DNA of 64,000 nt from Shigella phage SSP1, in the sequence record KY963424; one strand, given 5' to 3'. Position 1 is the stretch's first letter; each line of letters opens with the position of its first letter. Below are positions 7,929 to 52,734 of the stretch, piece after piece. A program made the translations under genes and the position numbers. The notes beneath the pieces were generated by a model. That model was not told the DNA's origin and did not search any database. It saw nothing but the letters and a program-made list of their open reading frames with translations.

Positions 7929-10016
7929 ATGTCACGTAATTTAATGCCTAAATCTGGCGCAATGGCGCCTTACGTAGTAGTTAACAGAGACGCTGCAGTT
8001 GCTGGTGTTTTCTCTGTCGATGGAGAGGCTGGTGCTGTTGTACTAACTTCCAAATATCTACAAATTACAAAATATACTACTGATAAAGCTGCTACTGATG
8101 CATCTATTAATAGTATTAATGAATCAATTGGTAATATTAATACTGCATTAGGTGGTATTAATACTACTTTAGGTACTAAAGCTGCTAAAGGTGCTAATAA
8201 CGATATTACAGAATTAAATGCACTGACTAAAGCTATTACTATTGCTCAGGGTGGTACTGGTGCTACTACGTTAGAGGGTGCTAAGAAGGCCTTACAAGTT
8301 GAGCGCCTTCGCCAACAGAGTAATGGAACTTTTATTGTATCTCCTAATGAGAAATATTCTTTATTTATATATGATAGTGGAGATTTTGGTCTACTTGATA
8401 ATTCTACCGCAGCAGTACAAGCATTAAAAGTTGCATTTGGTGGTACTGGAGGAACTACTCCAAAAGCAGCAAGAAAAAATCTTAATGTTCCGGTTGGCGC
8501 CTCGGCTGAAAAAATTGCTGATGGGGAAGATGTTCTAAACTATATTGCGGTTGCAGGTCAAAGTGGATACTATTCATCTGGTGAATTAATAGTTAATGGG
8601 CCTCCTAAGCAAGAAGGTTGGTGGGCCTATAACTTCCACTGTCATGGTGTGGATATTAACGGAGCTGCTCAGTATGGTACACTAAAAGCTACAGGAGCAC
8701 TTGGAAGTACTTGGATCAATATTCTAGATGGTACAGACAACTGGAGAGGATGGAAAGAGCAATTTAATACCCAGTCTATCATACAGTTTTCAAATGGGGG
8801 TACTGGTGCTACTTCTAAAGATGGTGCAAGAACTAACCTGGATATTGACAGATTCAAACAAAGTGCTACTGAGACTATGGTATATGCTCCCGGAAGTGGA
8901 TTTAGAATCACTGCTAGGCCTAATGGGGAATGGGGTACATGGAGAGATGATACCGGTACTTGGGTTCCTTTGGCTATTACAGCCGGGGGTACAGGAGCTA
9001 ATTCTGCCGACCAAGCTAGAAAAAATCTAGAGTTAACAGAGTGGAACCTCTTATCCTCTATGGATGGTAAATACCCTAATGGGTTTAATTTTGACACTCT
9101 TGCTGTAAATAGTAAGTTTACTGTTCCACCTACTGGAGGAAATATTGTTGGTACCCGACCATACCAACAAATAAACGGGTTGGAAGACGCTTGGTTTTTC
9201 CTAGAGACTCTAGTACACCCAGATCCTAACTATAGAATGCAAAGAGCCACCACGTTTACAGGAACTTGGAAAGGTTCAGTAAGCGTACGTATTATGGAGA
9301 ATGGTACTTGGGGTGTATGGCAACAAGCTCATGGGGCTTTGGGGCAATTAGTTAATGCAATCTCTAACCGAGGTGCCATTAGAGTACAGGGGGCTGCAAG
9401 TGGGGAATCTGGGTCACTAATAAGTGGTGCTATTACTGGTGGTTCATTTACTGATTGGAGATCAAGACCTACAGGAGTACTAGTAGAACATACTGGATTG
9501 GATTCTGCATCTTCTGTATTTAAAAGCGTAATGTGGGGTGTAGACTGGTTAGCCGGTATGGATGTAGTAGGCTGGAGTGCCGGCGGTGCACAGTTAAACA
9601 TGTATTGCAGGGGGGCTGAGTTTCGTTTTGATAGCGCTGGTAATGCTGTTGGTGGTAACTGGGTAAGCAGTTCTGATATTCGCATGAAAGCCAATCTTAA
9701 GGAAATTGAGAATGCTCGTGATAAGGTTAAGTCTCTAGTAGGCTATACATACTACAAGAGAAATACTCTAGCAGAAGAAAGAGATACCGTGTACAGTACT
9801 GAGGCTGGTGTTATCGCTCAAGATGTGCAATCTGTTCTCCCAGAAGCAGTGTACAAGATTGAGCCACAAAAAGAAGACAGTATGCTTGGTGTCTCCCATG
9901 CAGGTGTCAATGCTCTTCTAGTTAATGCTTTTAATGAACTTAACGAAGTTGTTGAAAAGCAGCAACAAGAGATTGATGAGCTTAAGAAACTGGTAAAACA
10001 GTTACTTGATAAATAA
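7929..10016 (+). CDS. Second tail fibre protein (LtfB-like) with C-terminal intramolecular chaperone (S74) domain
   Basis: 695 aa; four GGTGAT(T)..A(K/R)KAL/NL repeat units; C-terminal SSSDIRMKANL...VIAQDVQSVLPEAVYKI chaperone-like domain; RBS AAGGAAA upstream. Confidence 0.8.
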   Translation: MSRNLMPKSGAMAPYVVVNRDAAVAGVFSVDGEAGAVVLTSKYLQITKYTTDKAATDASINSINESIGNINTALGGINTTLGTKAAKGANNDITELNALTKAITIAQGGTGATTLEGAKKALQVERLRQQSNGTFIVSPNEKYSLFIYDSGDFGLLDNSTAAVQALKVAFGGTGGTTPKAARKNLNVPVGASAEKIADGEDVLNYIAVAGQSGYYSSGELIVNGPPKQEGWWAYNFHCHGVDINGAAQYGTLKATGALGSTWINILDGTDNWRGWKEQFNTQSIIQFSNGGTGATSKDGARTNLDIDRFKQSATETMVYAPGSGFRITARPNGEWGTWRDDTGTWVPLAITAGGTGANSADQARKNLELTEWNLLSSMDGKYPNGFNFDTLAVNSKFTVPPTGGNIVGTRPYQQINGLEDAWFFLETLVHPDPNYRMQRATTFTGTWKGSVSVRIMENGTWGVWQQAHGALGQLVNAISNRGAIRVQGAASGESGSLISGAITGGSFTDWRSRPTGVLVEHTGLDSASSVFKSVMWGVDWLAGMDVVGWSAGGAQLNMYCRGAEFRFDSAGNAVGGNWVSSSDIRMKANLKEIENARDKVKSLVGYTYYKRNTLAEERDTVYSTEAGVIAQDVQSVLPEAVYKIEPQKEDSMLGVSHAGVNALLVNAFNELNEVVEKQQQEIDELKKLVKQLLDK

Positions 10017-10020
10017 AAGA

Positions 10021-10050
10021 AAACCCCAGTGGATTGCCCACTGGGGTTTA
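10021..10050. terminator. Bidirectional intrinsic terminator between convergent late (+) and early (-) blocks
   Basis: CCCCAGTGG-ATTGC-CCACTGGGG perfect hairpin flanked by A-run upstream and T-run downstream. Confidence 0.7.
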
Positions 10051-10053
10051 TTA

Positions 10054-10320
10054 TTACCTGCTACCAGCAATAATACCTAAATTAAACACTGCTAACATAG
10101 CTCGAAGAGTAGGATCTTCTGAATTACTACATAGTTCGATAAAAGCCTCCTCATCCCAATGGATTACATTGCCTTCACGATCTACTTTGAGAACTACGTT
10201 ATTCATGTCTGGTTCTGCTACCATAACATGATGATATGTAGCGGGATGTTCAAATGATCCTACCATATTAGGATCAACAAAATTATTTACTTCCTGAACT
10301 TCCAAATCCACCTTCTCCAC
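10054..10320 (-). CDS. Hypothetical protein (88 aa)
   Basis: ORF at 3' end of the minus-strand early block; no recognisable motif. Confidence 0.4.
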   Translation of the reverse strand: MEKVDLEVQEVNNFVDPNMVGSFEHPATYHHVMVAEPDMNNVVLKVDREGNVIHWDEEAFIELCSNSEDPTLRAMLAVFNLGIIAGSR

Positions 10321-10729
10321 GATTAGTCTCCTCTAGTTCGTCAACGATTTTAAAATTATGGGTTGAGTAGTGTGGTACTATCACCAACTGACAAAGTCTT
10401 TCGAAATTTTCTAATGTTTGTATTTCAGAACCGTAGTTAAATAGATTCATCTTAATAGTTCCACGATAGTCTGAGTCAATCACTCCTGCGGTGTTTGCGA
10501 TCATCAGATGACGCTTACCTAAAGAGCTGCGAGGAACTACCAAACCGAACCAACCTCGCGGAATTTCCACCGCGACACCGGTGTCAATCATTAAGGATTT
10601 GCCTGGTGCAATAGCACGTAAATCTGCGGCAGGGTTAGTACCAAAGAACGCTCGTAAATCCATACCTGCGGCATCTTCGGAACCAATCTTAGGCATACAA
10701 TCTGGATGAGTTAATTTAATTTTAATCAT
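10283..10729 (-). CDS. dut: dUTP pyrophosphatase
   Basis: 148 aa; motifs AGMDLRA, RSSLGKRHLMIANTAGVIDSDYRG typical of trimeric dUTPases. Confidence 0.85.
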   Translation of the reverse strand: MIKIKLTHPDCMPKIGSEDAAGMDLRAFFGTNPAADLRAIAPGKSLMIDTGVAVEIPRGWFGLVVPRSSLGKRHLMIANTAGVIDSDYRGTIKMNLFNYGSEIQTLENFERLCQLVIVPHYSTHNFKIVDELEETNRGEGGFGSSGSK

Positions 10730-11601
10730 TGTTCTGCAATCTCCAAAATATCTTTTGTAAACTTATCTAATACATCTTGACCTACAGCAGCAATAGCATC
10801 TACACAGTAGGTAGGTAAATCAACCAGAATTAAGTTTCGGTAAAGCAATTCTTCCGAAGCATTTAAATTCTGTATATATTTCTGTTTTCCAGGTAGTGGA
10901 AGCTGATCAATAATATCCAGAACGTTACCAAATTCACGAATAATATTATACCCGCGTTTTGCCCCAATACCTTCAACACCACGGATATTATCCCCTAAAT
11001 CACCCATAATTGCTTTCAGAGAGATAAACTGCTCTACATCGTCAACATTATGATGCTCATACATATCACGAAGATGGTATTCGCGACGTGTTGTAAAAGA
11101 GAAGCGAGAAACTTTATCAGTTAATAAAGTATCCCAGTCACCATCAGTAGAAATCAACCAAACGTGATCATACAGATGTCCAATGAGTTTAACGATATAA
11201 GCCGCCATATCATCTGCTTCTACACCACGAATAGTGAATGTTGGGAATGTAGTTTCACATAGTTCGAAAGCATCTTTCAAATACTCGAAGAACTGCTCAT
11301 CTAACGCTTTCTCCTCTTCCGTACGCTGCGAGTATTTCTCATCTCGATTCCCTTTATACTCAGGGAGATGCTCTAAGCGGAATGCAGACTTCCCTTTATC
11401 TCCTAAAACTATTGTAGTTCTAGCGGAATAAGATTTTGCTAGAGACTGAATAGTGGAAACATAACTTGAGGCAAATGGTTTTTTACTGTTATTATGCTTG
11501 AAGCGAAAGCCTAAGTTAGTTCCATCAACAATCATTAGGTTACGACGGGAAGCCATTTCAGCTTCCTCTTCTTCAATAAATTTTCCCCAGGATTTACTCA
11601 T
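10726..11601 (-). CDS. Flap endonuclease / 5'-3' exonuclease (T5 D15-like)
   Basis: 291 aa; N-terminal MSKSWGKFIEEEE...NLMIVDGTNLGFRF and acidic metal-binding residues characteristic of FEN/5' nuclease family. Confidence 0.8.
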   Translation of the reverse strand: MSKSWGKFIEEEEAEMASRRNLMIVDGTNLGFRFKHNNSKKPFASSYVSTIQSLAKSYSARTTIVLGDKGKSAFRLEHLPEYKGNRDEKYSQRTEEEKALDEQFFEYLKDAFELCETTFPTFTIRGVEADDMAAYIVKLIGHLYDHVWLISTDGDWDTLLTDKVSRFSFTTRREYHLRDMYEHHNVDDVEQFISLKAIMGDLGDNIRGVEGIGAKRGYNIIREFGNVLDIIDQLPLPGKQKYIQNLNASEELLYRNLILVDLPTYCVDAIAAVGQDVLDKFTKDILEIAEQ

Positions 11602-28286: not shown

Positions 28287-28529
28287 TTACGATTCCTTGA
28301 GCAAAGAAGCAAGTTCAGCATAGACTTTATCTAACTCAAAGCCGATGCGAAGAGACACGTTTGTTTTCCGTTGTTTAAGTAACCACTCGGATATGTTAGG
28401 GATGCCAGCTAATCTATGCGGTACCACCCTACATAGCTTTTCCGAAGTGTCGTAAACAGGAACTTTACGTTCTTTTACTGGGAACTTCCTTGTTTCCCAT
28501 TTTTTATTCTTCACTGTCATTTCTAGCAC
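28287..28529 (-). CDS. Hypothetical protein (80 aa)
   Basis: ORF overlapping end of 929-aa gene. Confidence 0.4.
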   Translation of the reverse strand: MLEMTVKNKKWETRKFPVKERKVPVYDTSEKLCRVVPHRLAGIPNISEWLLKQRKTNVSLRIGFELDKVYAELASLLKES

Positions 28530-31293
28530 CTAGCTCTGCCATTGCTTCATCATGCATATGTTTCTCCTCGTCAGTCATAAACTTATATGGGATTGGCATA
28601 CACTCGATTTTACAATAAGTTCTGTACCAGTCTACAATATTCTCCGTATTCATATCCTTACCAATACCCATCATACCAAGATACATTCTCGCATATTTTG
28701 GGTTAGCACTCTGACCTGTTTTAAGGAAGAAATCTTTCTTTTTACCTTTCAGAGCTTCTATGAATGGTTTGATAGTGACATTTGAACACTTCTTAATATC
28801 TTCCCAGAACATCTCGTGCATTTTATGGAAAAATGCCGCTCGATCATTCGGTTTATCCTTGATATATTGTTCAACATGCTCAACTGTTACATCTTTAATA
28901 GACTCAAGATGATAGTAGCGAACAAGAAGTAGTTTAGCTTCATACGCATCTGCATGGCGTGGAGCACAATAATCAGGAGTTGAATACAAAATAGCTTTGA
29001 TTCGCTCTTCCGTATATTCCTTCCCAGCACCTTCGATAGTTCCCCAGCTTTCACTGAAAATATCAATAGTTGCACCCTGATCAAGCAAGTAATAACGTAA
29101 AGTACTAGTATAGTTCCTAGATTCCAGCTCCCTACGACGTGCGTATAATTGCTGTGCTAACTCCAGCCAACCTTCATCAATGTTATATTGCTCAGAACCT
29201 GCGGAGAATCCACTCGTAGATTTATCAATAAAATAATAAATGTTCTGAGCGCCACGGTCGCGCCTGATTGCTTGAAAACGCATGTTTGGCGCTTGGTTGC
29301 TGGTTCTAGTAATAACGAATACGTTATCAAAATAGTTGAAGTCAACACCACTAGTTACTGATGGACTACATAATAAGCAATCAATTTGTTGGTCAATTAG
29401 CTCATTAGTTGTGTAATCCAGAATACGTCTAATATCTACATCAGACGTAGAGTTTGAGTGGATTTCCTTAACTAACGCACCCGTATTACGACGCAACGCC
29501 ATGCCCTTCTCATTCAGTTCATCTGGACCACAGTCAGATACTAGGATAGATTTCTCACCCATCTCTAGAGAAGTCTGAAGTGCAACCCAAATACTGGATT
29601 CATCAGGGAACTCATAAGCATGAGCTTTTGACAGCATTTTACGGTGGTGATTATAAAATGCAACCGGTTTATCAAAATCAATTAGAGAACCGTAGGCTTC
29701 AATAGTCTCAGCACTAATATCACCATCGGATAAGATTACAGTTTTAGCTGTCATGAGGATGTCACGTAGAACTTGAATACACTCGCGACGTTGTTTAACA
29801 ACTGGGGCGAATAATAGATCATTCATTACAGCGTCACATTCATCAATAAAGATGGTGTCTATTTGACCAATAAAACTTTTGAACTTATGCAAAGAGTGAA
29901 TAGTTGTGGACATACGATCAATAGCTCCACGTTTAAAGTTGAGCATATCTACAGACTTATCATATTGTCCTGCGCTAAATTTCTTAGCGTTTGAAGATAC
30001 CAGCGCTCTAGTATTTGTAACTGCTAAAAAGTTGCCAGGAAGAACCCCTGCGTCCAGCCATTTAGTTACTGCCGTAGTTTTACCAGTACCAAGACTTGCC
30101 TTAACAAATGTTATATGGCCCTTTGGGGGCACAATGTTAATCTTCAGGTATGGAACTTCTGGTGGAGAATCCACTTCTAATTTCTTGAGTGGAACACCCT
30201 TCAGATTTAATGGAATCTCACGTTTAGAATTATTAACAAACGCTTTGAGAGCCTGCTTACGACCGTTATTAAAGTAATCTTGAATATTACGACTGTTATC
30301 TTTAGTTGCAATATATTCAGATAAAGCGGGTTTAATCTCACGTTCTAGCCATGCGAAATCAACACCATCCTCTAATGCTCTATGGTATAGTTTGGGGATA
30401 ATACGCAAGTACACCCCATCATCAGCTTCTTCCAATTCGCTGATGGTTTCTTCTACTTTATCAGAAGCAATCTTTTTGCCTTTAATTTGATCAAGTAAAG
30501 AATAAAACTCTTCCTTAAACTCCCCTCTAGTTGTTTCATAGTCAACCAGATTATTAGGCAAATTTACCTTCGAACCTTTAACATACACCAGACGTGGCTT
30601 ACTCTCCGCTTTAAACGGATCAACAATACCATCGCTAAATAAAGGGTCGGCAAAATAGTGAAGCTGGACAGATGAATAATAAGCTAAGTCGGCAATATCA
30701 AAACCGAATTTTTGCTTACTACTATCATTGATAGACGTAAATAGGAACTTTAACTGACCTTGAGTTACCTTGACGTTAGATTCTAGCATTAAGTGCATTC
30801 GGATACCTGGTTTTAGGCCAGCCGAAGACGATGCATGAGCAATAAACCCTGCATCAAGAGGAAACATGTCCTCACTAATACTATTCAACATCTTAATAAT
30901 GTGGCGGGCCATACCTACAAGATTAAACTTGTCGTACCCACCGGTATCTATGATACCATCCACGTCCATAGCAATAATATTGCTAGGGTTGGATACATTA
31001 AAGTTACCTTTCTTACGTCGCACATTATTTTTAGGTGCAAGACATCGACCTCGTACCGCAACGATATGAGGGTCAGACGTTAAACGTCTCATAAGTGGTA
31101 ACATTTCGGCAAGGCTTTGCGGGTCATGCTCTTCTATTACATCAAATTTGAAGGGCATAGAAGCTGGTTTACCTTCTGGATGCTCTTTCGAGAATCGTTT
31201 GGCAAAGGTATAATCTTCCGCTTTGATTTCTCGCCAAATACCTGTTGCTAAATCACGAGAAAATCCGGCGTGACCTTGGAGGATAGAAAACAC
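28504..31293 (-). CDS. Putative replication-origin-binding protein / SF2 ATPase (UL9-like)
   Basis: 929 aa; Walker A VKASLGTGKTT, Walker B/DExD IFIDECD; large N-terminal domain. Confidence 0.65.
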   Translation of the reverse strand: MFSILQGHAGFSRDLATGIWREIKAEDYTFAKRFSKEHPEGKPASMPFKFDVIEEHDPQSLAEMLPLMRRLTSDPHIVAVRGRCLAPKNNVRRKKGNFNVSNPSNIIAMDVDGIIDTGGYDKFNLVGMARHIIKMLNSISEDMFPLDAGFIAHASSSAGLKPGIRMHLMLESNVKVTQGQLKFLFTSINDSSKQKFGFDIADLAYYSSVQLHYFADPLFSDGIVDPFKAESKPRLVYVKGSKVNLPNNLVDYETTRGEFKEEFYSLLDQIKGKKIASDKVEETISELEEADDGVYLRIIPKLYHRALEDGVDFAWLEREIKPALSEYIATKDNSRNIQDYFNNGRKQALKAFVNNSKREIPLNLKGVPLKKLEVDSPPEVPYLKINIVPPKGHITFVKASLGTGKTTAVTKWLDAGVLPGNFLAVTNTRALVSSNAKKFSAGQYDKSVDMLNFKRGAIDRMSTTIHSLHKFKSFIGQIDTIFIDECDAVMNDLLFAPVVKQRRECIQVLRDILMTAKTVILSDGDISAETIEAYGSLIDFDKPVAFYNHHRKMLSKAHAYEFPDESSIWVALQTSLEMGEKSILVSDCGPDELNEKGMALRRNTGALVKEIHSNSTSDVDIRRILDYTTNELIDQQIDCLLCSPSVTSGVDFNYFDNVFVITRTSNQAPNMRFQAIRRDRGAQNIYYFIDKSTSGFSAGSEQYNIDEGWLELAQQLYARRRELESRNYTSTLRYYLLDQGATIDIFSESWGTIEGAGKEYTEERIKAILYSTPDYCAPRHADAYEAKLLLVRYYHLESIKDVTVEHVEQYIKDKPNDRAAFFHKMHEMFWEDIKKCSNVTIKPFIEALKGKKKDFFLKTGQSANPKYARMYLGMMGIGKDMNTENIVDWYRTYCKIECMPIPYKFMTDEEKHMHDEAMAELGARNDSEE

Positions 31294-31790
31294 AACAATA
31301 CTCCTGTATTGATTAATCGAAATCTTTTCTTTAGGACTATTCAGAAAGAATAGAACAACTATTACTACTATTTACGTAAACATCAATTATCATCAAACAA
31401 TATGAATAAGTTATCATATCTCAGTGCTGTGCTCTCTTCGCTCATATACAGAATAGAACCTAGGTCATTGGCCGCTAAGCCGATTCTATTTGTCCTCACT
31501 ATCCTATTGGTAGGTGACTACTGTACGTGCCGCCATTCGCTGCTCTTTTCGTTCGCACCCCCATATAAAGCTCTGCCTATATAACGAGCTAAATATGCAC
31601 GGTTTGGATTTACCTTTCCGAATTCAGGGTACACAGATCACTTAATTGAAGATTAACTAATGCAATATAAACACTAGTAATAGTTAAAACAACCCTTAAT
31701 GGGGCAGCCTAACTGTTCCGTATCGCGGATTGTAAACAAGAAAAATTAGCAAAATCAATTTTTACTAATGTCTCTCAATTCAATATAAAT

Positions 31791-31819
31791 ATTATATCAA
31801 GATTTTGGGCATCCTGCAA
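31791..31819 (-). promoter_or_regulatory. Early promoter (TTGCAG-17-TATAAT)
   Basis: Reverse complement TTTTACTTGCAGGATGCCCAAAATCTTGATATAAT; followed by about 480 nt leader before the 929-aa gene. Confidence 0.5.
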
Positions 31820-31913
31820 GTAAAATTTTCCGGATGGTGCTATCATTGGTCTTGAGTACGGGTAAAACCGAGCCAAAATGACTCGGTAATCAGAGTTCAG
31901 CCAATAAAAATCA

Positions 31914-32303
31914 TTAGTCATTTAATCCCGGAACATAGATCCCAACACGGTTTAATTGTTCTTTAGCTTCTTTGAGAATATCTGGAGTGTACTCCCAAAT
32001 ATCATCTTCCACCTGTAAAAGATGGGGCGAACAACCGTCATCCGGCACACGGCATATGGCCAAACCACGTGGGTGGAACAAAGAGAAATTTAGGGCAACA
32101 ATTAAACCCATAGCAGACAATTCATTCCAATCCAATTCCCATTCCCCCGCGTAGCCGGATAGGAAAACACCAACACAGGGATCATCTATTTGCTGCTCCG
32201 GAAAAGTGAAGGAGGCTTGTCTTACCCCCAACCAACGTTGTAGCAGCTTCTCCGCACGTTTCACCAAACTAGGATCAATCTGACGCCAATATACTTGTTC
32301 CAT
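31914..32303 (-). CDS. Hypothetical protein, paralog A (129 aa)
   Basis: Shares ...GxxExxxxELxxMGLxxALNxxLF...VPGL(N/T) architecture with adjacent ORF. Confidence 0.55.
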   Translation of the reverse strand: MEQVYWRQIDPSLVKRAEKLLQRWLGVRQASFTFPEQQIDDPCVGVFLSGYAGEWELDWNELSAMGLIVALNFSLFHPRGLAICRVPDDGCSPHLLQVEDDIWEYTPDILKEAKEQLNRVGIYVPGLND

Positions 32304-32312
32304 TGTGCCCCC

Positions 32313-32741
32313 TTAGGCAGTTAAACCTGGGATCATATACCCGAAACGTCGAAGTTTCTGAATCCCCTCATTTACTTCTTCCGGTGAGTAAGACCAACCA
32401 TAACGTTCATTAACCTGAAAACCAGGAGATTCACTAGTTTTATAGTTAACAACGAGGCGATGCTTAGCAGGCATAAACAGCTTATAGTTTAACGCAAAAA
32501 CTAAGCCCATTTCATCTAACTCTTTCCAGCCGACAATCTCTTCAAGACCCTCCTCTACCTGAACAATTAAACCAATACAGGGAGCCTCATCAATATCATC
32601 TTTAAAAGCAAAGGAGATTTCGTTATTCTCACACCATATTTTCAAAGAGTTAATAGCCTCATTATACAGGCTAGCTGGGAGAGTACGCCAAAAGTTAACC
32701 AAAATTGGATTAGCTTCTTTAGAGAATACATTATTGAACAT
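32313..32741 (-). CDS. Hypothetical protein, paralog B (142 aa)
   Basis: Tandem paralog of 31914..32303. Confidence 0.55.
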   Translation of the reverse strand: MFNNVFSKEANPILVNFWRTLPASLYNEAINSLKIWCENNEISFAFKDDIDEAPCIGLIVQVEEGLEEIVGWKELDEMGLVFALNYKLFMPAKHRLVVNYKTSESPGFQVNERYGWSYSPEEVNEGIQKLRRFGYMIPGLTA

Positions 32742-32743
32742 AT

Positions 32744-33256
32744 TTACACCTTAAATTGTTGTAGGGCTTTACACATTTCAAGATCTGGACTAAATTCTAA
32801 CATATAGCTAACAGCTCTTAAATCTTGAAGATTTATCCCAGTTCTACCATTGACTATAACTGTTGGATACTGATACATCATAGCACCGGCATCATCCAGC
32901 ACACACCAATGTTTGAGCCTATGCTTTTCAACGAAGCGAAGAACAGAATTACCCCTAGATAATCCACCCCCAGTAAAATCCGTTGTACCAAGAAAACGAT
33001 CGATAAGGCCTAATCCGGTCATAATCTGAACGTTCTCCATCTCATTTCTGACAGAGAACCAAGATGATACTCCAACAATCATTATCGGAGAAGGACGAAT
33101 AAAGTCCTGAAAAGCCTTGAGAAGCGGTTTGAAAACCCAGTCACTTCCAAAGAAAATCTTTTCATCATCAGGTGCATGATGGTGGGAGATGCTCGAATTG
33201 AGCACCCCATCAATGTCTAGAAAAATAATTGGAATATTACTTATTTCCTGACACAT
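32744..33256 (-). CDS. HAD-superfamily hydrolase (putative nucleotidase/phosphatase)
   Basis: N-terminal IIFLDIDGVL HAD motif I (DxDGx). Confidence 0.6.
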   Translation of the reverse strand: MCQEISNIPIIFLDIDGVLNSSISHHHAPDDEKIFFGSDWVFKPLLKAFQDFIRPSPIMIVGVSSWFSVRNEMENVQIMTGLGLIDRFLGTTDFTGGGLSRGNSVLRFVEKHRLKHWCVLDDAGAMMYQYPTVIVNGRTGINLQDLRAVSYMLEFSPDLEMCKALQQFKV

Positions 33257-34052
33257 AAGGTCTACCCCCTAAATGAGCTTCTACACGAGCAATAAAATCA
33301 GTATCACTGAAAGCATCTACCGCACCTTTACTCCAGTAAGGGATACCGCGTTCTTCCAGCTGGTACATCTCACTACGAGTCATACCTTGATAGCTCGGTT
33401 CCGCCGCTAGTACACTATCATAGTAGTTAACAACCATAAGTTTCGCAGCAGTCAAATTAAGAACAGGAAATAATTCCCAATAGAAGTTAATTACTTGGTT
33501 AGAGCAACCAACCACAATGATCATATCTTGACTAGTAATACCATCAAAAACATTATACATTTCTGCATACGCTGGAGCATGCTCCCCAAAGAAGACTACA
33601 TTAGGTTTAACCCATTTATAATCATCTGGGTCAATAGAATTGTATCCTACATCAATAATCCGTTTATTGCTACTATTGTAGCTATCAGCTACAACAACCT
33701 CTTTTAAATATCCGTGAATGTGCAGAATGTCACTATGTGGAACGCCAGCACGCTCAATAAGGTCATCAACGTTGGTAGTCAAGTTTACTACTTGACCTGG
33801 GTATTGTTTATACCATTCACCAATACGCAAATGCGCAAGATTGGGTTCAACAGTTTTTAGCTCTTCACGACGCTTGTTGTAAAACATATGGGTTTTATGG
33901 TAAAAATTACCACGAAAGGCATGAATATTACACACTTCTTCTAGATCATAATCATCCCACAATGCTTTACCACTAGCAGTATCAGTACGAAAAGCTCGTA
34001 CACCACTTTCAACACTCAAACCTGCACCGCTAATAATAATTAACCTACGCAC
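33237..34052 (-). CDS. SIR2-family (sirtuin-like) NAD-dependent enzyme
   Basis: LIIISGAGLSVESGVRAFR Rossmann/NAD-binding sirtuin signature; 271 aa. Confidence 0.65.
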   Translation of the reverse strand: MRRLIIISGAGLSVESGVRAFRTDTASGKALWDDYDLEEVCNIHAFRGNFYHKTHMFYNKRREELKTVEPNLAHLRIGEWYKQYPGQVVNLTTNVDDLIERAGVPHSDILHIHGYLKEVVVADSYNSSNKRIIDVGYNSIDPDDYKWVKPNVVFFGEHAPAYAEMYNVFDGITSQDMIIVVGCSNQVINFYWELFPVLNLTAAKLMVVNYYDSVLAAEPSYQGMTRSEMYQLEERGIPYWSKGAVDAFSDTDFIARVEAHLGGRPYVSGNK

Positions 34053-34246
34053 TATACGATTCCTCGCTTAAATCCTTCGATAATATTTCGGAGTAAAATT
34101 GCTTCCTCCGGGCGTACCTTTTCTTGCTTAATAAGCATATCCAATCCAGCAATACAACTAGCTACACCAGCATTATAACCAGAGTTCCATTGCTCAATAA
34201 GCATGTTTTCTAGATTACTTTTTAGACTCTGATTCAAGAAGTCCAT
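34052..34246 (-). CDS. Hypothetical protein (64 aa)
   Basis: Small ORF. Confidence 0.35.
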   Translation of the reverse strand: MDFLNQSLKSNLENMLIEQWNSGYNAGVASCIAGLDMLIKQEKVRPEEAILLRNIIEGFKRGIV

Positions 34247-34418
34247 AAAGTTTCTCCTCTAGTTCCATAACACGATTTTCATAAGAAGCACGCAACTTTT
34301 CAATTGCCAGCGCACGCACTGTAACCTCATTAGAATTAATAGCTAACTGGGCCAGGTCTTCTGTTTCCATACGTCCGTTGTAAATTAAGCGATATTTAAG
34401 ATGTTTTACGTTTTTCAT
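34215..34418 (-). CDS. Hypothetical protein (67 aa)
   Basis: Small ORF. Confidence 0.35.
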   Translation of the reverse strand: MKNVKHLKYRLIYNGRMETEDLAQLAINSNEVTVRALAIEKLRASYENRVMELEEKLYGLLESESKK

Positions 34419-34427
34419 TCTTGTTCC

Positions 34428-34709
34428 TTAGTTCTGTACTGTAAACTCATTCTTATCACAGTGAGCATAATAATACCCATACATACGATAAATTTTCACA
34501 GCCTTAGTAGACCCCTTCGATTCTTCATAATCAATCCAGAGCCACTTGTCTTTACCTACATAATGTACCCGAAACTTCTTAACTTTCTTATCATTCCATG
34601 TTGCAACAACACGACGATAATCAAATCCACCCAACCAATCTAGAGCCTTACGTTCTTCACTAGGCTCTCCAAGATGGGAGACATCTACTTTAGGAAGCAA
34701 CTCGCTCAT
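34428..34709 (-). CDS. Hypothetical protein (93 aa)
   Basis: ORF downstream of early promoter at 34738..34766. Confidence 0.45.
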   Translation of the reverse strand: MSELLPKVDVSHLGEPSEERKALDWLGGFDYRRVVATWNDKKVKKFRVHYVGKDKWLWIDYEESKGSTKAVKIYRMYGYYYAHCDKNEFTVQN

Positions 34710-34737
34710 AGCTTTCTCCTCTCAAATTTATAAATCA

Positions 34738-34766
34738 ATTATACATAAATTTTTGGCTGAAAGCAA
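34738..34766 (-). promoter_or_regulatory. T5-type early promoter (TTGCTT-17-TATAAT + ATAAATTTGAGAGGAG box)
   Basis: Reverse complement TTTATTTGCTTTCAGCCAAAAATTTATGTATAATTGATTTATAAATTTGAGAGGAG. Confidence 0.65.
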
Positions 34767-34808
34767 ATAAAATAAAAGCCAGGTCGACTAGCAACCCGGC
34801 TGATTAGC

Positions 34809-36683
34809 TTATTTAGCTCGAATATCCTGATGTTTCACTCTGCCCATAACCTCGTGCTGTTTGCCGGGGTTAAATGGACGAGCACCCGGATTTCCAAGAT
34901 ACCCACAAACTCGACGAGTTACCTCAAGAGTTTCGGGGTCATGATTACCACAGATAGGGCACTTAAATCCATCTTCGGATGCTATTGTTTCACCTAAGAA
35001 TCCACATTTACCGCAAGAATCCACTGGAGTATTAATACCGAAGTAATGAACTTTACTAGCAGCATAATTAATAACCCATTCCAGTGCATCTGGGAATCGT
35101 TTCATATCTGGTAGTTCTACATAGGAAATGCACCCACCAGAAGCAATCGGAGTGAAATTAGATTCATAATCAAATTTCACGTTAGGAGCAACTTTACGTT
35201 CTACATCAAGGTGGTGAGAGTTAGTGTAGTATCCTTTGGACAGAATATCTTCATGCTCCGGGAAATATTCGCGGTCTAGACGACAAAAACGGTCACATAG
35301 GGATTCTGATGGTGTAGCATACAGGCTATAACCTAATTTAGTTTCTTCCTTCTTCTGATCGACTCTATCCCGCATGTACTGCAATACACGCTGAACAAAC
35401 TTGATGCAGGTCTCGGACATTGTGTCTACATCTTTGCCAAACATAAACTGTAGCATTTCATGGCAACCAATATACCCTAGAGATACAGAAGCACGGTTAT
35501 AGAAATGATCGAATACATACTCATCCGGCTCCAAGCGTAACCCAAAGGCTCCTGACATATAGAGGATGGGTGCAGCTTTAGCTTGAATGTATTTTAAGCG
35601 ATCAACTCTCCACTCCAATGCTTTTAACGCTGTATCCACACGTAGCTCAAGCAAATCAAAGAATAGATCAATATTTCCTTCAGCTTCGATAGCAATTCTA
35701 GGCAAGTTTACAGAAACAACACCTAAGTTATTACGACCGGCAGTTTCACCATCTTCTGTAGCAGCTAGGAATGAACGGCAGCCCATAGAAACTTTATAGT
35801 CACCAGTAACTTCCACAACCTTATCATAGCTGATATAATCTGGATACATACGTTCAGCAGTACATTTCATAGCTAACTTCTTGATGTCATAATTAACATC
35901 TCCTGGTTTCATATTTACGCCATCACGAAGTACAAATACCAGTTTCGGGAAGATAGCTGTACGTTTATTGATACCTAAACCATCCATGCGTACTTTCAGT
36001 ATTGCTTTCTGTACTAGACGTGCTTCCCAAGAAGTTCCTAGACCAAAACCAAAGGTAATAAATGGACTCTGCCCATTAGAGTTGAACATGGTATTGATTT
36101 CATATTCTAAACCCTGACAAGCGTCATAGACTTCTTTTTCAGTCATCTCCGTAGCCATTACGGATGCTTTGGCTTCATCCTTAGTCCAACGTTTTGCAAA
36201 CGCATGATTTTTGTCATAGGATTTACGAACATAAGGGGCTAATACTTCATCAAGGCGATCTACAGAAGTACCACCATACTGATGGGAGCTAACCTGAGTG
36301 ATAATCTGAGCAGTAATAGCCGCCGCAGTAGTGATAGAGTTTGGAGTGCTAATTTCAGCATTACCAACCTTCATGCCATTCTTCAACATATCTTCCAGGG
36401 CCACCAGACAACAGTTAGTCATGCCTAATGCAGCATAATCAGCATCATGGAAATGAATATCCCCAATCATATGAGCATTTCGAATCTGAATTGGCATTTC
36501 TTCTAGAATTAGATACTTACTCAACTCACCTGCAAGCATATCCCTTTGTGTAGGGAAACGTTCTGAGGGTTTATTGGCATTATTAAATAGCAGTTCTTCA
36601 TCTGCTGACCCTTCGATAATCTCTTTGCAGTTTCTAATTAACGCCTGCATTTCTTTATACTTTAGTTCTTCATTACGATTCAT
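34809..36683 (-). CDS. nrdD: Anaerobic ribonucleoside-triphosphate reductase (class III)
   Basis: 624 aa; C-terminal glycyl-radical motif RVCGYLG and Cys4 zinc site CGKCGF...CPICG. Confidence 0.9.
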   Translation of the reverse strand: MNRNEELKYKEMQALIRNCKEIIEGSADEELLFNNANKPSERFPTQRDMLAGELSKYLILEEMPIQIRNAHMIGDIHFHDADYAALGMTNCCLVALEDMLKNGMKVGNAEISTPNSITTAAAITAQIITQVSSHQYGGTSVDRLDEVLAPYVRKSYDKNHAFAKRWTKDEAKASVMATEMTEKEVYDACQGLEYEINTMFNSNGQSPFITFGFGLGTSWEARLVQKAILKVRMDGLGINKRTAIFPKLVFVLRDGVNMKPGDVNYDIKKLAMKCTAERMYPDYISYDKVVEVTGDYKVSMGCRSFLAATEDGETAGRNNLGVVSVNLPRIAIEAEGNIDLFFDLLELRVDTALKALEWRVDRLKYIQAKAAPILYMSGAFGLRLEPDEYVFDHFYNRASVSLGYIGCHEMLQFMFGKDVDTMSETCIKFVQRVLQYMRDRVDQKKEETKLGYSLYATPSESLCDRFCRLDREYFPEHEDILSKGYYTNSHHLDVERKVAPNVKFDYESNFTPIASGGCISYVELPDMKRFPDALEWVINYAASKVHYFGINTPVDSCGKCGFLGETIASEDGFKCPICGNHDPETLEVTRRVCGYLGNPGARPFNPGKQHEVMGRVKHQDIRAK

Positions 36684-36712: not shown

Positions 36713-36741
36713 ATTATAACTCATTCGAGGGCGGATGTCAA
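36713..36741 (-). promoter_or_regulatory. Consensus sigma70-like promoter for nrdD (TTGACA-17-TATAAT)
   Basis: Reverse complement TTGACATCCGCCCTCGAATGAGTTATAAT. Confidence 0.6.
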
Positions 36742-36876: not shown

Positions 36877-37368
36877 ATGAACACTGAAATAACACAAGAC
36901 CTACTAAGAACTTACTTTGACTATAAAGATGGAGAATTGTTTTACAAACCAACTTATAAAACCCCTGCAGGAAGAATATCCAAAAAAGCAGGTAAATCCG
37001 CCAGACTAACTCCGAGTAACGGGTACTATCGTATAAATGTACCAAGAATAGGTGTACAGAAAGAACATAGGATGATTTTCCTATATCATGAAGGATACCT
37101 ACCAGAAGTAGTAGATCATATTGATAGGGATAAGGAAAATAATAGGATAGAGAACCTTAGGGCATCTAATCTTCAGGACAACGCTATTAATCGCTCCATA
37201 AGTAAGAGTAACACCTCTGGCATTGTGGGTGTCCATTATGATGAATCGTATGGTAAGTGGGTTGTAACGTATAGGGGTAAGTACTTTGGAAGATTTGATA
37301 CCAAAGAAGAAGCTGCCGAAGTTAATGCTAATGTTCGTGCCCTTGATCAAACCCGTATAAATAGTTGA
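36877..37368 (+). CDS. HNH homing endonuclease with AP2 DNA-binding domain
   Basis: VDHIDRDKENNRIENLRASNLQDNAIN (HNH) followed by GVHYDESYGKWVVTYRGKYFGRFDTKEEAA (AP2-like). Confidence 0.75.
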   Translation: MNTEITQDLLRTYFDYKDGELFYKPTYKTPAGRISKKAGKSARLTPSNGYYRINVPRIGVQKEHRMIFLYHEGYLPEVVDHIDRDKENNRIENLRASNLQDNAINRSISKSNTSGIVGVHYDESYGKWVVTYRGKYFGRFDTKEEAAEVNANVRALDQTRINS

Positions 37369-51754: not shown

Positions 51755-51827
51755 AACGGGGTGTAGTCTAAGGGAGAGGCAGGAGTCTTCTAAATTCCTT
51801 TATGCAGGTTCGAATCCTGTATGAGCA
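51755..51827 (+). ncRNA. tRNA-like 3' element (T-arm GCAGG-TTCGAAT-CCTGT) at end of ORF-less region
   Basis: Canonical T-loop; no complementary 5' acceptor strand found by eye. Confidence 0.3.
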
Positions 51828-52734
51828 AAAATTGATGCGTAATATCAAACGTTGGGGTATTGGTGCTGCAGTTGGTTTGGTAGGTTTAGTTCTGGCCCTT
51901 AACTCCTATACTGTTGTTCAAGACGGTACTGTTAAAACCCAGACTTTCCTGGGTAAAGTTGACCCTAGCCCAGTATTACCCGGCTTTCATATTGTAAATC
52001 CTTTTGCTTCTTTCGATACTTTTAGTACTAAAGATATTGCTCTAAAATTAGATAAACTTCAGGTTCCTAGTCAGGATAAGTTTAAATCCACTGTTGACCT
52101 GACTGTTATGTTGCAGTTTGATGGTTCTAAGGCACCGATTAACCGTATTAATGCAGGTACTCAGGATCAATCGTTAGACAAATATGTAACTGAAAAATTA
52201 CTGTCTACTATTCGTGAGTTTGGTAAATCTGTACCTAAAGCACAAGATTTGTTTGATGCTAAAATTCAGGCTCAATTGCAAACTGCAATTCAACAGGAAG
52301 TTGAAGAGTATGCACGCCCATATGGTTACACAGTTAAGCAGGTGTTCCTTCAGGATATTACTTTGCCACCGGTAATCATGGAACAGGTACAGAATACCAA
52401 AGTTCGTGAAGAGCAGGTTAATGCTGCTAAAGCTGAATTAGCTCGTGTTGAACAGGAAGCACAGCAAAAAGTTAAACAAGCAGAAGCAGATCGTGAAGCC
52501 CGCAACAACCAAGCTATTGCCAATGAACGTGACGCAGATGCTAAACTATACGCAGCTAAGAAAGAAGCTGAAGCTAACGCCGCATTACAACGTACCATTA
52601 CTCCTGAGATGATTCGCTGGAAGCAACTGGAAGTCGAAATGATTCGTGCTCAGAAATATCAAGGTGGTGTACCCCAGACTGTGGTAGGTACTGGCTACGA
52701 TGGTCAAATGATCATGGATATGCGTAATAAATAA
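51802..52734 (+). CDS. SPFH/band-7 domain membrane protein (prohibitin/HflC-like)
   Basis: N-terminal TM helix WGIGAAVGLVGLVLAL, SPFH-like core, C-terminal Ala/Glu/Gln-rich coiled coil; likely start at ATG 51835 (MRNIKRW); no clear SD. Confidence 0.65.
   Translation: MQVRILYEQKLMRNIKRWGIGAAVGLVGLVLALNSYTVVQDGTVKTQTFLGKVDPSPVLPGFHIVNPFASFDTFSTKDIALKLDKLQVPSQDKFKSTVDLTVMLQFDGSKAPINRINAGTQDQSLDKYVTEKLLSTIREFGKSVPKAQDLFDAKIQAQLQTAIQQEVEEYARPYGYTVKQVFLQDITLPPVIMEQVQNTKVREEQVNAAKAELARVEQEAQQKVKQAEADREARNNQAIANERDADAKLYAAKKEAEANAALQRTITPEMIRWKQLEVEMIRAQKYQGGVPQTVVGTGYDGQMIMDMRNK

Follow-up and report, generated by a model that had tools for sequence, protein, structure and literature searches.

Iyer et al. 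(2022; Viruses 14:1977; PMC9503650, section 3.7.3) described a neighbourhood in the T5-like Escherichia phage SP15, their type 3, in which a sirtuin gene adjoins a gene for a Swiss Army Knife (SAK)-like phosphatase of the HAD family. Such sirtuins were predicted to be KptA-like and to remove 2'-phosphates from RNA, and the accessory phosphoesterases were proposed to act on RNA ends or on ADP-ribose cyclic phosphate. Here we analysed the same pair in Shigella phage SSP1 (sequence record KY963424), in a stretch of 64,000 nucleotides (hereafter, the window) that carries both genes on its minus strand between positions 32744 and 34052. The two phages belong to the same phage group, their sirtuins are 95.6% identical and the two neighbourhoods show no material difference; the published account, in which function is predicted, says nothing of the neighbouring DUF7415 genes, of the differences among phages in whether the HAD gene occurs and in what order, or of the absent ligase. 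The finding is thus real but not new: annotations of these genes exist for T5, SPC35 and hundreds of relatives, and both the pairing and the RNA-repair hypothesis were published in 2022. What the present analysis does is narrow the question, in that the acyl-pocket triad of the sirtuin is kept, its zinc ribbon is lost, the phage has no ligase of its own, which points to a host ligase, and the HAD partner is optional. We tentatively favour, with rather less than even confidence, the reading that the pair is a module for the healing of damaged RNA that depends on nicotinamide adenine dinucleotide (NAD+), the RNA probably being tRNA cut by host anticodon nucleases; its substrate, products and role are what we infer from the evidence below.

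Several other systems bear on this locus. Escherichia coli CobB (PDB 1S5P, 6RXJ) and human SIRT5 have several features in common with the window sirtuin: a Rossmann core, the GAGxS...FR loop and FGE motif, a catalytic His, the QNID Asn and Asp, and the acyl-pocket triad. The window protein, however, is just 27–29% identical to them, has no zinc-binding Cys, carries Thr for Gln and has an RNA-repair context in related phages. Tpt1/KptA, by contrast, has a fold unrelated to that of sirtuins, and the window protein is not a member of that family; the likeness would be one of chemistry, the proposed reaction being one in which ADP-ribose is first transferred from NAD+ to an anionic oxygen and its 2''-OH then attacks. 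The NARP1-AP pathway (Adps, Namat and the Macro-domain phosphatase Adpp) is comparable in that an HAD_SAK_2 protein of the kind found in phage ChuuTotoro occupies the equivalent operon position; however, the NARP1-AP phosphatase has a Macro and not an HAD fold, and Adps- and Namat-like genes are missing from the window and from JLBYU40, a complete genome of the same phage lineage. For the phosphatase, the relevant enzymes are the capless (C0-type) HADs MDP-1, the CTD phosphatases SCP1/FCP1 and the phosphatase domain of T4 Pnkp, and the window HAD is at most 18% identical to any solved structure. Finally, the defence SIR2 NADases (ThsA, DSR1/2, SIR2-HerA and SIR2-APAZ) share the superfamily and the NAD+ substrate with the window sirtuin, which differs from them in matching no PADLOC model, in having no fused or adjacent sensor or partner and in having deacylases as its top fold matches. 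An analogy to NAD-depleting abortive-infection SIR2 proteins, drawn in a preliminary description of this DNA, thus holds at the level of the superfamily and goes no further, no PADLOC defence model having been matched.

A zinc-less sirtuin with conserved catalytic residues

The sirtuin gene (33237..34052, minus strand; 271 amino acids) was identified in the list of open reading frames (ORFs) by matches to Pfam SIR2 (PF02146; residues 9–187, E=2.5e-25, 89.9 bits against a cut-off of 24) and PHROG 2162 (E=1e-120). The preliminary description had reported a sirtuin-fold protein of this length with a GAGLSVESG motif, beside an HAD phosphatase and downstream of nrdD on the same strand, and its coordinates and motifs proved exact. 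Among sequences in PDB, the best match was E. coli CobB (E=1.3e-17; 29% identity by BLASTP). An AlphaFold (AF2) model built from 45 homologs reached a predicted local distance difference test (pLDDT) score of 90.2 and a predicted template modelling score of 0.88, and in the structural comparison its closest Foldseek neighbours were CobB (1S5P/6RX*; E=8.7e-18, template modelling score 0.84 on the CobB length), SIRT5 and Sir2Af1, each of which is a class-III sirtuin.

Conservation was computed on 45 phage homologs with 54–85% identity, and the catalytic residues were retained, among them the His and Asn that the preliminary description had proposed to compare. The NAD+-binding loop GAGLSVESGVRAFR (residues 9–22; 33987..34028, minus strand), which aligns to CobB GAGISAESGIRTFR and contains the GAGLSVESG motif (34002-34028, minus strand), is conserved throughout, with G9, A10, G11, S13, S16, G17, F21 and R22 invariant. 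The catalytic His113, which aligns to CobB His147, lies in an HIHG motif (33711..33722, minus strand), and the alignment to CobB places TTNVD (33765-33779, minus strand) at the position of the canonical TQNID; His113, Asn94 and Asp96 are invariant, as is Thr93, which replaces the Gln of TQNID. Also invariant are F155-G-E157, G182-x-S184 and N209, and the residues of the acyl-lysine tunnel (F21, V95, V152 and F155) are conserved in the clade. The class-III Y-x-x-R motif is present as YNKR (Tyr58 to Arg61; 33870..33881, minus strand), aligning to CobB Y92/R95, and Cys41 (codon 33930-33932, minus strand) aligns to CobB Ala76 (CobB residue numbers here are those of CobB-S plus 37). All three residues, C41, Y58 and R61, are invariant, indicating that the class-III acyl-pocket triad is kept; we take them to be the equivalents of SIRT5 Ala86/Tyr102/Arg105, the triad that forms the pocket for acidic acyl groups.

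No zinc ribbon remains. Where it would lie, the protein has a small-domain segment without Cys (residues 115–150; 33603..33710, minus strand), modelled as three strands with pLDDT >90, and the zinc-ligand Cys residues of CobB align to other residues in the window protein. Across the homologs, 31 of 45 have no Cys at all in residues 114–152, and none of the 45 has four.

Nor is the sirtuin a CobB equivalog, as it scores far below the cut-off of that model (NCBIfam NF040867, 90.9 bits against 320) and below that of the best subfamily model (101 against 243). Among the 120 database homologs listed, all at least 50% identical, those with a named source were phage proteins or unnamed proteins recorded under Salmonella isolates. 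Host genomes already encode CobB, and acquisition of the gene as a CobB ortholog from a host was ruled out by the 29% identity and by scores far under the equivalog cut-offs. A defence-type SIR2 NADase was likewise rejected, given that no PADLOC defence model matches and that the Pfam match is to the classical SIR2 model and not to SIR2_2. Judged from sequence and predicted structure, the protein is an active-looking, zinc-less, class-III-like member of a large phage-specific clade, and its activity is a prediction.

A separate observation concerns variation at this locus. In two Epseptimavirus-type IMG/VR loci (L035 and L034), the sirtuin is a sharply mosaic allele relative to window positions 28504-36683: in L035, nrdD is 98%, the 93-amino-acid ORF 100%, the HAD 89% and the replication helicase 91% identical to the window genes, and the sirtuin just 51%. 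The L035 protein has an insertion of ~30 amino acids after residue 50, and the catalytic residues are present in both alleles. Two deeply diverged sirtuin alleles at one locus suggest cassette exchange or diversifying pressure.

A near-capless HAD_SAK_2 phosphatase

The second gene of the pair (32744..33256, minus strand; 170 amino acids; T5.105 in phage T5), likewise taken from the ORF list, matches Pfam HAD_SAK_2 (PF18143, "HAD domain in Swiss Army Knife RNA repair proteins"; E=7.5e-20, 72.1 bits against a cut-off of 27.5). Its nucleophile motif DIDGV lies within FLDIDGVLN (33197-33223, minus strand), and the four catalytic motifs, D14-x-D16-G-V, S64/S65, R101 and D121-D122, are retained in homologs down to 28% identity; D14, S64/S65, R101 and D121 are invariant in the alignment, and D16 and D122 are present in at least 90% of sequences. 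No match in PDB was found by sequence. The predicted structure is confident and shows a Rossmannoid HAD fold, with MDP-1 and CTD phosphatases as nearest folds; T4 Pnkp was missing from the top 60 fold matches.

Near-capless HADs usually act on large or macromolecular substrates. The family and the modelled architecture point to large or macromolecular phosphomonoesters as the probable substrates of this near-capless HAD_SAK_2 enzyme, and the label of nucleotidase given to it in the preliminary description was not borne out. The known 5'-deoxynucleotidase of T5 was also considered and ruled out, because its gene (JLBYU40_1) is found at the pre-early end and not here.

Distribution and linkage of the pair

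Homologs of the sirtuin were found in 1006 of 50,697 phage records, including T5-like, rV5-like (Vequintavirinae), phi92-like, KVP40-like and jumbo phages, and homologs of the HAD in 497 records, nearly all T5-like. In all 19 T5-like IMG/VR loci, which were recovered through the HAD, the sirtuin lies directly upstream of the HAD, the two genes overlapping as in the window or being separated by a spacer of ~160–330 nucleotides; in JLBYU40, this spacer contains a 60-amino-acid ORF. Four other Demerecviridae-like lineages (L006, L011, L131 and L132) have the reversed order of HAD, one ORF and sirtuin, which argues that the association of the pair is more than inherited synteny.

Loss of the pair was observed in Escherichia phage DT57C (L098; KM979354.1, 46493-46765), where a 90-amino-acid ORF fuses sirtuin residues 171–212 to HAD residues 130–170 and the N-terminus of the sirtuin is deleted as well, so that both genes are destroyed. 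In the sister phage DT571/2, both are intact. DT57C is thus a natural double knockout, and the two phages are a ready comparison pair.

Among more distant relatives, clustering of the neighbours of 60 HAD_SAK_2-like viral loci revealed no dominant partner. The commonest cluster, at 7 loci, was putatively helicase-like, and metallophosphoesterase-like, poly(A)-polymerase/CCA-adding-type and Nmnat-Nudix-like clusters occurred at 4–5 loci each, the poly(A)-polymerase/CCA-adding type being confirmed by Pfam for one member.

The naming of the HAD gene in databases was also noted. RefSeq (NC_015269, NC_005859 and others) calls it "Sir2 (NAD-dependent deacetylase)", with the result that the locus displays "Sir2" twice. 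PHROG 18062, a family of 92 positions named Sir2, has a profile that matches both sirtuin residues 169–216 and HAD residues 79–170 and resembles the chimeric deletion remnant of DT57C. The RefSeq name probably derives from this family and looks like an error of annotation propagation.

RNA-repair neighbourhoods of the orthologs

The sirtuin orthologs that occur in RNA-repair cassettes are 52–59% identical to the window protein (rV5, 57%; metagenomic contig L134, 55%). In rV5, a calcineurin-like phosphoesterase and an AAA_33 kinase are encoded on one strand, and a T4-type RNA ligase 1, cREC (a "cyclic-phosphate processing" domain protein) and the sirtuin on the other; the same arrangement is found in Klebsiella phage BIS47 and in L134. 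The HAD and DUF7415 genes have comparable company in a genome of the Aeromonas phage Ah1 type, where the order is thymidylate synthase, HAD_SAK_2, DUF4326, a GIY-YIG gene, RNA ligase 1 and DUF7415, with a poly(A)-polymerase/CCA-adding-type enzyme further on. Sirtuin, HAD and DUF7415 are therefore each found beside RNA ligase 1 elsewhere, in agreement with Iyer et al. (2022), and the neighbourhood evidence in part backs the RNA-repair reading. The unit in the window has the HAD phosphatase and no cREC or AAA_33 kinase.

With regard to tRNA, over 20 tRNA genes lie in the collinear region of the close relative JLBYU40, and a tRNA of T5 itself is reported to defeat a tRNA-cleaving defence (PMC11464382).

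Possible functions of the pair

In the RNA-healing scheme that we tentatively favour, two early genes of a T5-like phage would each encode an enzyme that looks active. The sirtuin would bind NAD+, and an anionic oxygen of the substrate, predicted to be an RNA 2'-phosphate and not the carbonyl of an acyl-lysine, would attack C1'' of NAD+. His113 would activate the 2''-OH of ADP-ribose and the adduct would be resolved, yielding nicotinamide, ADP-ribose-1'',2''-cyclic phosphate and RNA with a 2'-OH, a chemistry that would parallel that of Tpt1/KptA on a sirtuin scaffold. The near-capless HAD would remove a terminal phosphomonoester, which might sit on an RNA end (as a 3'/2'-phosphate) or on the by-product, ADP-ribose phosphate, and sealing would fall to a host ligase; because no phage RNA ligase was found, the phage would heal without sealing. 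Such RNA-directed chemistry is plausible, since in the sirtuin mechanism C1'' of NAD+ is attacked by an oxygen nucleophile and the adduct by the 2''-OH that the His activates, and Tpt1/KptA follows the same course with an oxygen of a phosphate. A broader proposal is that the whole phage sirtuin clade acts on broken RNA ends, by 2'-phosphate removal or ADP-ribosylation, and not on proteins, the Tyr/Arg pocket having been repurposed for phosphate, and that HAD_SAK_2 clears the resulting phosphate on RNA or ADP-ribose; we regard this as possible but somewhat doubtful.

Several results weigh against an RNA-healing function. The class-III desuccinylase signature of the acyl pocket (small residue/Tyr/Arg) is invariant, as a protein deacylase would keep it, and protein phosphatases are among the nearest folds of the HAD. 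A tblastn search (E<0.1) of the window and of the entire JLBYU40 genome gave no RNA ligase of the Rnl1, Rnl2 or ChuuTotoro type, and no end-healing kinase is annotated in JLBYU40. The linkage of the pair has limits as well: Sugarlandvirus and contig L133 retain the sirtuin and DUF7415 genes without the HAD, and a sirtuin was found within 6 kb in none of the 60 distant HAD_SAK_2-like viral loci. The DT57C remnant indicates that both genes are dispensable for the propagation of that isolate, and a literature search turned up neither biochemical nor genetic tests of phage sirtuins belonging to this clade.

The first of these points is also a ground for the principal alternative, in which the sirtuin would, like CobB, use NAD+ to deacylate protein lysines (as a deacetylase, desuccinylase or lipoamidase) and so reset the acylation of host or phage proteins, the HAD being unrelated or loosely connected. 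The best matches in both sequence and structure are CobB, SIRT5 and Sir2Af1, the catalytic His and the acyl-lysine tunnel are conserved, and the gene is retained in lineages without the HAD. The standing database annotation is "NAD-dependent deacetylase", which is also the reading of Skliros et al. (2016; PMC5107563), and because the triad C41/Y58/R61 (CobB A76/Y92/R95) is invariant, it remains a serious rival. However, a deacylase role leaves the recurring cassettes of RNA ligase, cREC and kinase around the orthologs unexplained, the hosts have a CobB of their own and the scores are far under the CobB equivalog cut-offs. The zinc ribbon, moreover, is part of the peptide cleft and is required in characterised sirtuins, and here it is gone. 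On balance, we consider this alternative rather unlikely.

The next alternative, which takes up the idea of the preliminary description, is a role in the metabolism of NAD+ and ADP-ribose (ADPR) or in counter-defence, in which the HAD would dephosphorylate a metabolite such as ADPR-1''-phosphate, as an analog of Adpp, and the sirtuin would make or consume such metabolites. In Serratia phage ChuuTotoro (L005/L016; ON287369.1, 35888-39502) and Acinetobacter phage ABPH49 (L010), an HAD_SAK_2 homolog, the nearest outside the T5-like phages (38% identical), overlaps a Prs-like gene, with a NAMPT-family gene (595 amino acids) coming next, an architecture like that of NARP1, and there is no sirtuin anywhere in the ChuuTotoro genome. 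NARP1 operons recruit a Macro-fold ADPR-1P phosphatase (10.64898/2026.01.28.702374), ADPR cyclic phosphate arises by decay of ADPR-PP, and the ChuuTotoro-type HAD may, by analogy, be the counterpart of the Macro-domain ADPR-1''P phosphatase of NARP1. In the Ah1-type order, the HAD also neighbours DUF4326, which Iyer et al. (PMC9503650) predicted to act on ribose-linked phosphates of ADPr.

Against this, the ChuuTotoro-type HAD clade is confined to 3 phage records, and its neighbours could be Prs and Nampt instead of Adps and Namat; we named them Prs-like and NAMPT-like, the published features that separate Adps/Namat from Prs/Nampt being structural. In Vequintavirinae, the Prs-like operon stands beside the sirtuin/RNA-ligase cassette anyway (in BIS47 and L134, the Prs-like gene is divergently transcribed a few kb from it), and the adjacency may reflect a shared locus. 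Searches of the window and of the whole JLBYU40 genome gave no homologs of Nampt, Prs/Adps or Nmnat, and no NARP3 (NadR/PnuC) gene is annotated in JLBYU40, for which no sequence query for NARP3 was made. The fold matches of the HAD, together with the general preference of near-capless HADs for large or macromolecular substrates, point the same way. We therefore judge this alternative improbable, and the combined role in nucleotide or NAD salvage advanced in the preliminary description is weakly supported.

A last reading, in which the sirtuin would serve host takeover or superinfection exclusion as an NADase or macromolecular ADP-ribosyltransferase, like defence SIR2 effectors or SirTM-type enzymes, is very improbable: a sirtuin fold with an intact NAD+ site would suit any NAD+-cleaving reaction and Iyer et al. 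(PMC9503650) give such roles to other, minor phage sirtuin groups, but the protein matches classical SIR2 and neither SIR2_2 nor a PADLOC model, no Macro, HerA or sensor gene is adjacent, and unregulated depletion of NAD+ would harm the phage because its lineage uses an NAD-dependent DNA ligase.

Were the RNA-healing proposal true, a nucleic-acid-directed activity would be on record for a sirtuin for the first time, widening the chemistry of an enzyme family that has been studied heavily. A Tpt1-independent route of tRNA healing against anticodon-nuclease defences would come with it, as would an NAD+-consuming repair arm in the conflict between phage and host over tRNA and NAD+.

Organization of the locus

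The window originates from a Tequintavirus (T5-like, Demerecviridae): positions 31918-34750 share 97.7% identity with Salmonella phages Th1 and SPC35 and match 447 phage records, and the sirtuin and HAD genes are 93–98% identical to annotated genes of T5, SPC35 and SP15. All genes of the unit lie on the minus strand. Upstream of the sirtuin is nrdD (34809..36683), with three small ORFs of 93, 67 and 64 amino acids in between (34052..34709; PHROGs 7953, 5236 and 5827, with no function assigned), which are kept in relatives. Directly downstream of the HAD are two tandem DUF7415 genes, a (32313..32741, 142 amino acids; Pfam E=5.3e-36) and b (31914..32303, 129 amino acids; E=9.4e-32), the latter being the last gene of the unit, and then the gene for a replication-origin-binding helicase (28504..31293).

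The sirtuin starts with a GTG behind a GAGGA Shine-Dalgarno sequence and shares 1 nucleotide with the stop codon of the upstream ORF; its N-terminus, MRRLI, is that of all homologs. The ATG of the HAD, preceded by a GGGGG Shine-Dalgarno sequence, lies within the last 20 nucleotides of the sirtuin gene, so that the two genes overlap by 20 nucleotides and are very probably translationally coupled. By consensus match, a perfect sigma-70 promoter (TTGACA-17-TATAAT, 12/12 positions; 36713..36741, minus strand) lies upstream of nrdD and a terminator-like hairpin (a 10-pair stem followed by a T run; 34777..34801, minus strand) directly after it. A consensus scan revealed no above-chance promoter between these two elements. 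Given this hairpin, read-through or a weak internal promoter may be needed for the sirtuin unit to be expressed. The annotation of T5 places a terminator immediately behind T5.107, the ortholog of the second DUF7415 gene.

The junction between the sirtuin and the HAD varies among relatives. The extra ORF of JLBYU40 (L001, 5335-5517; JLBYU40_132) also occurs in some other Tequintavirus genomes, and its presence, set against the 20-nucleotide overlap of the SPC35-type lineage, indicates that the junction is a site of small indels.

The two DUF7415 proteins are 32% identical to each other, and protein a is a possible member of the sirtuin module; in Sugarlandvirus, a lineage without the HAD, it adjoins the sirtuin. 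DUF7415 homologs were found in 832 phage records, and the loci of relatives include L039 (8296-8529) and L129 (5891-6759). In Ah1, the start of the DUF7415 gene overlaps the stop of RNA ligase 1; in many Klebsiella T4-like phages, the gene lies beside nrdD/nrdG, and some homologs occur in P2-like phages. A scan of IMG/VR for DUF7415 relatives gave T5-like loci only, the derived patterns being too specific. Some records call these proteins "tail tube protein" or "exonuclease", labels that look unfounded.

We also compared the small ORFs that flank the sirtuin in different lineages, namely rV5 cREC, the ORFs of 116–117 amino acids in L006 and L011, those of phi-Grn1 and EmilieFrey, and the 93-, 67- and 64-amino-acid ORFs of the window. 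A common origin was rejected, as only the L006 and L011 ORFs match each other, and Pfam gave no family for the ORFs scanned except rV5 cREC.

Between nrdD and a PhoH-like gene, the window carries a 163-amino-acid ORF (36877-37368, plus strand) where JLBYU40 and SPC35 have only a spacer of ~350 nucleotides. Its sequence (…VVDHIDRDKENNRIENLR…) resembles an insertion of an HNH-type homing endonuclease. In addition, the part of the window that is collinear with the JLBYU40 cluster of tRNA genes encodes an SPFH/Band_7 protein (51802-52734, plus strand; E=1.1e-19); in JLBYU40, an annotated SPFH protein adjoins tRNA-Arg, and contig L134 carries a Band_7 gene (9983-10843) ~4 kb from its sirtuin/RNA-ligase cassette. 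Burroughs and Aravind reportedly proposed in 2016 that SPFH modules are RNA-repair cofactors.

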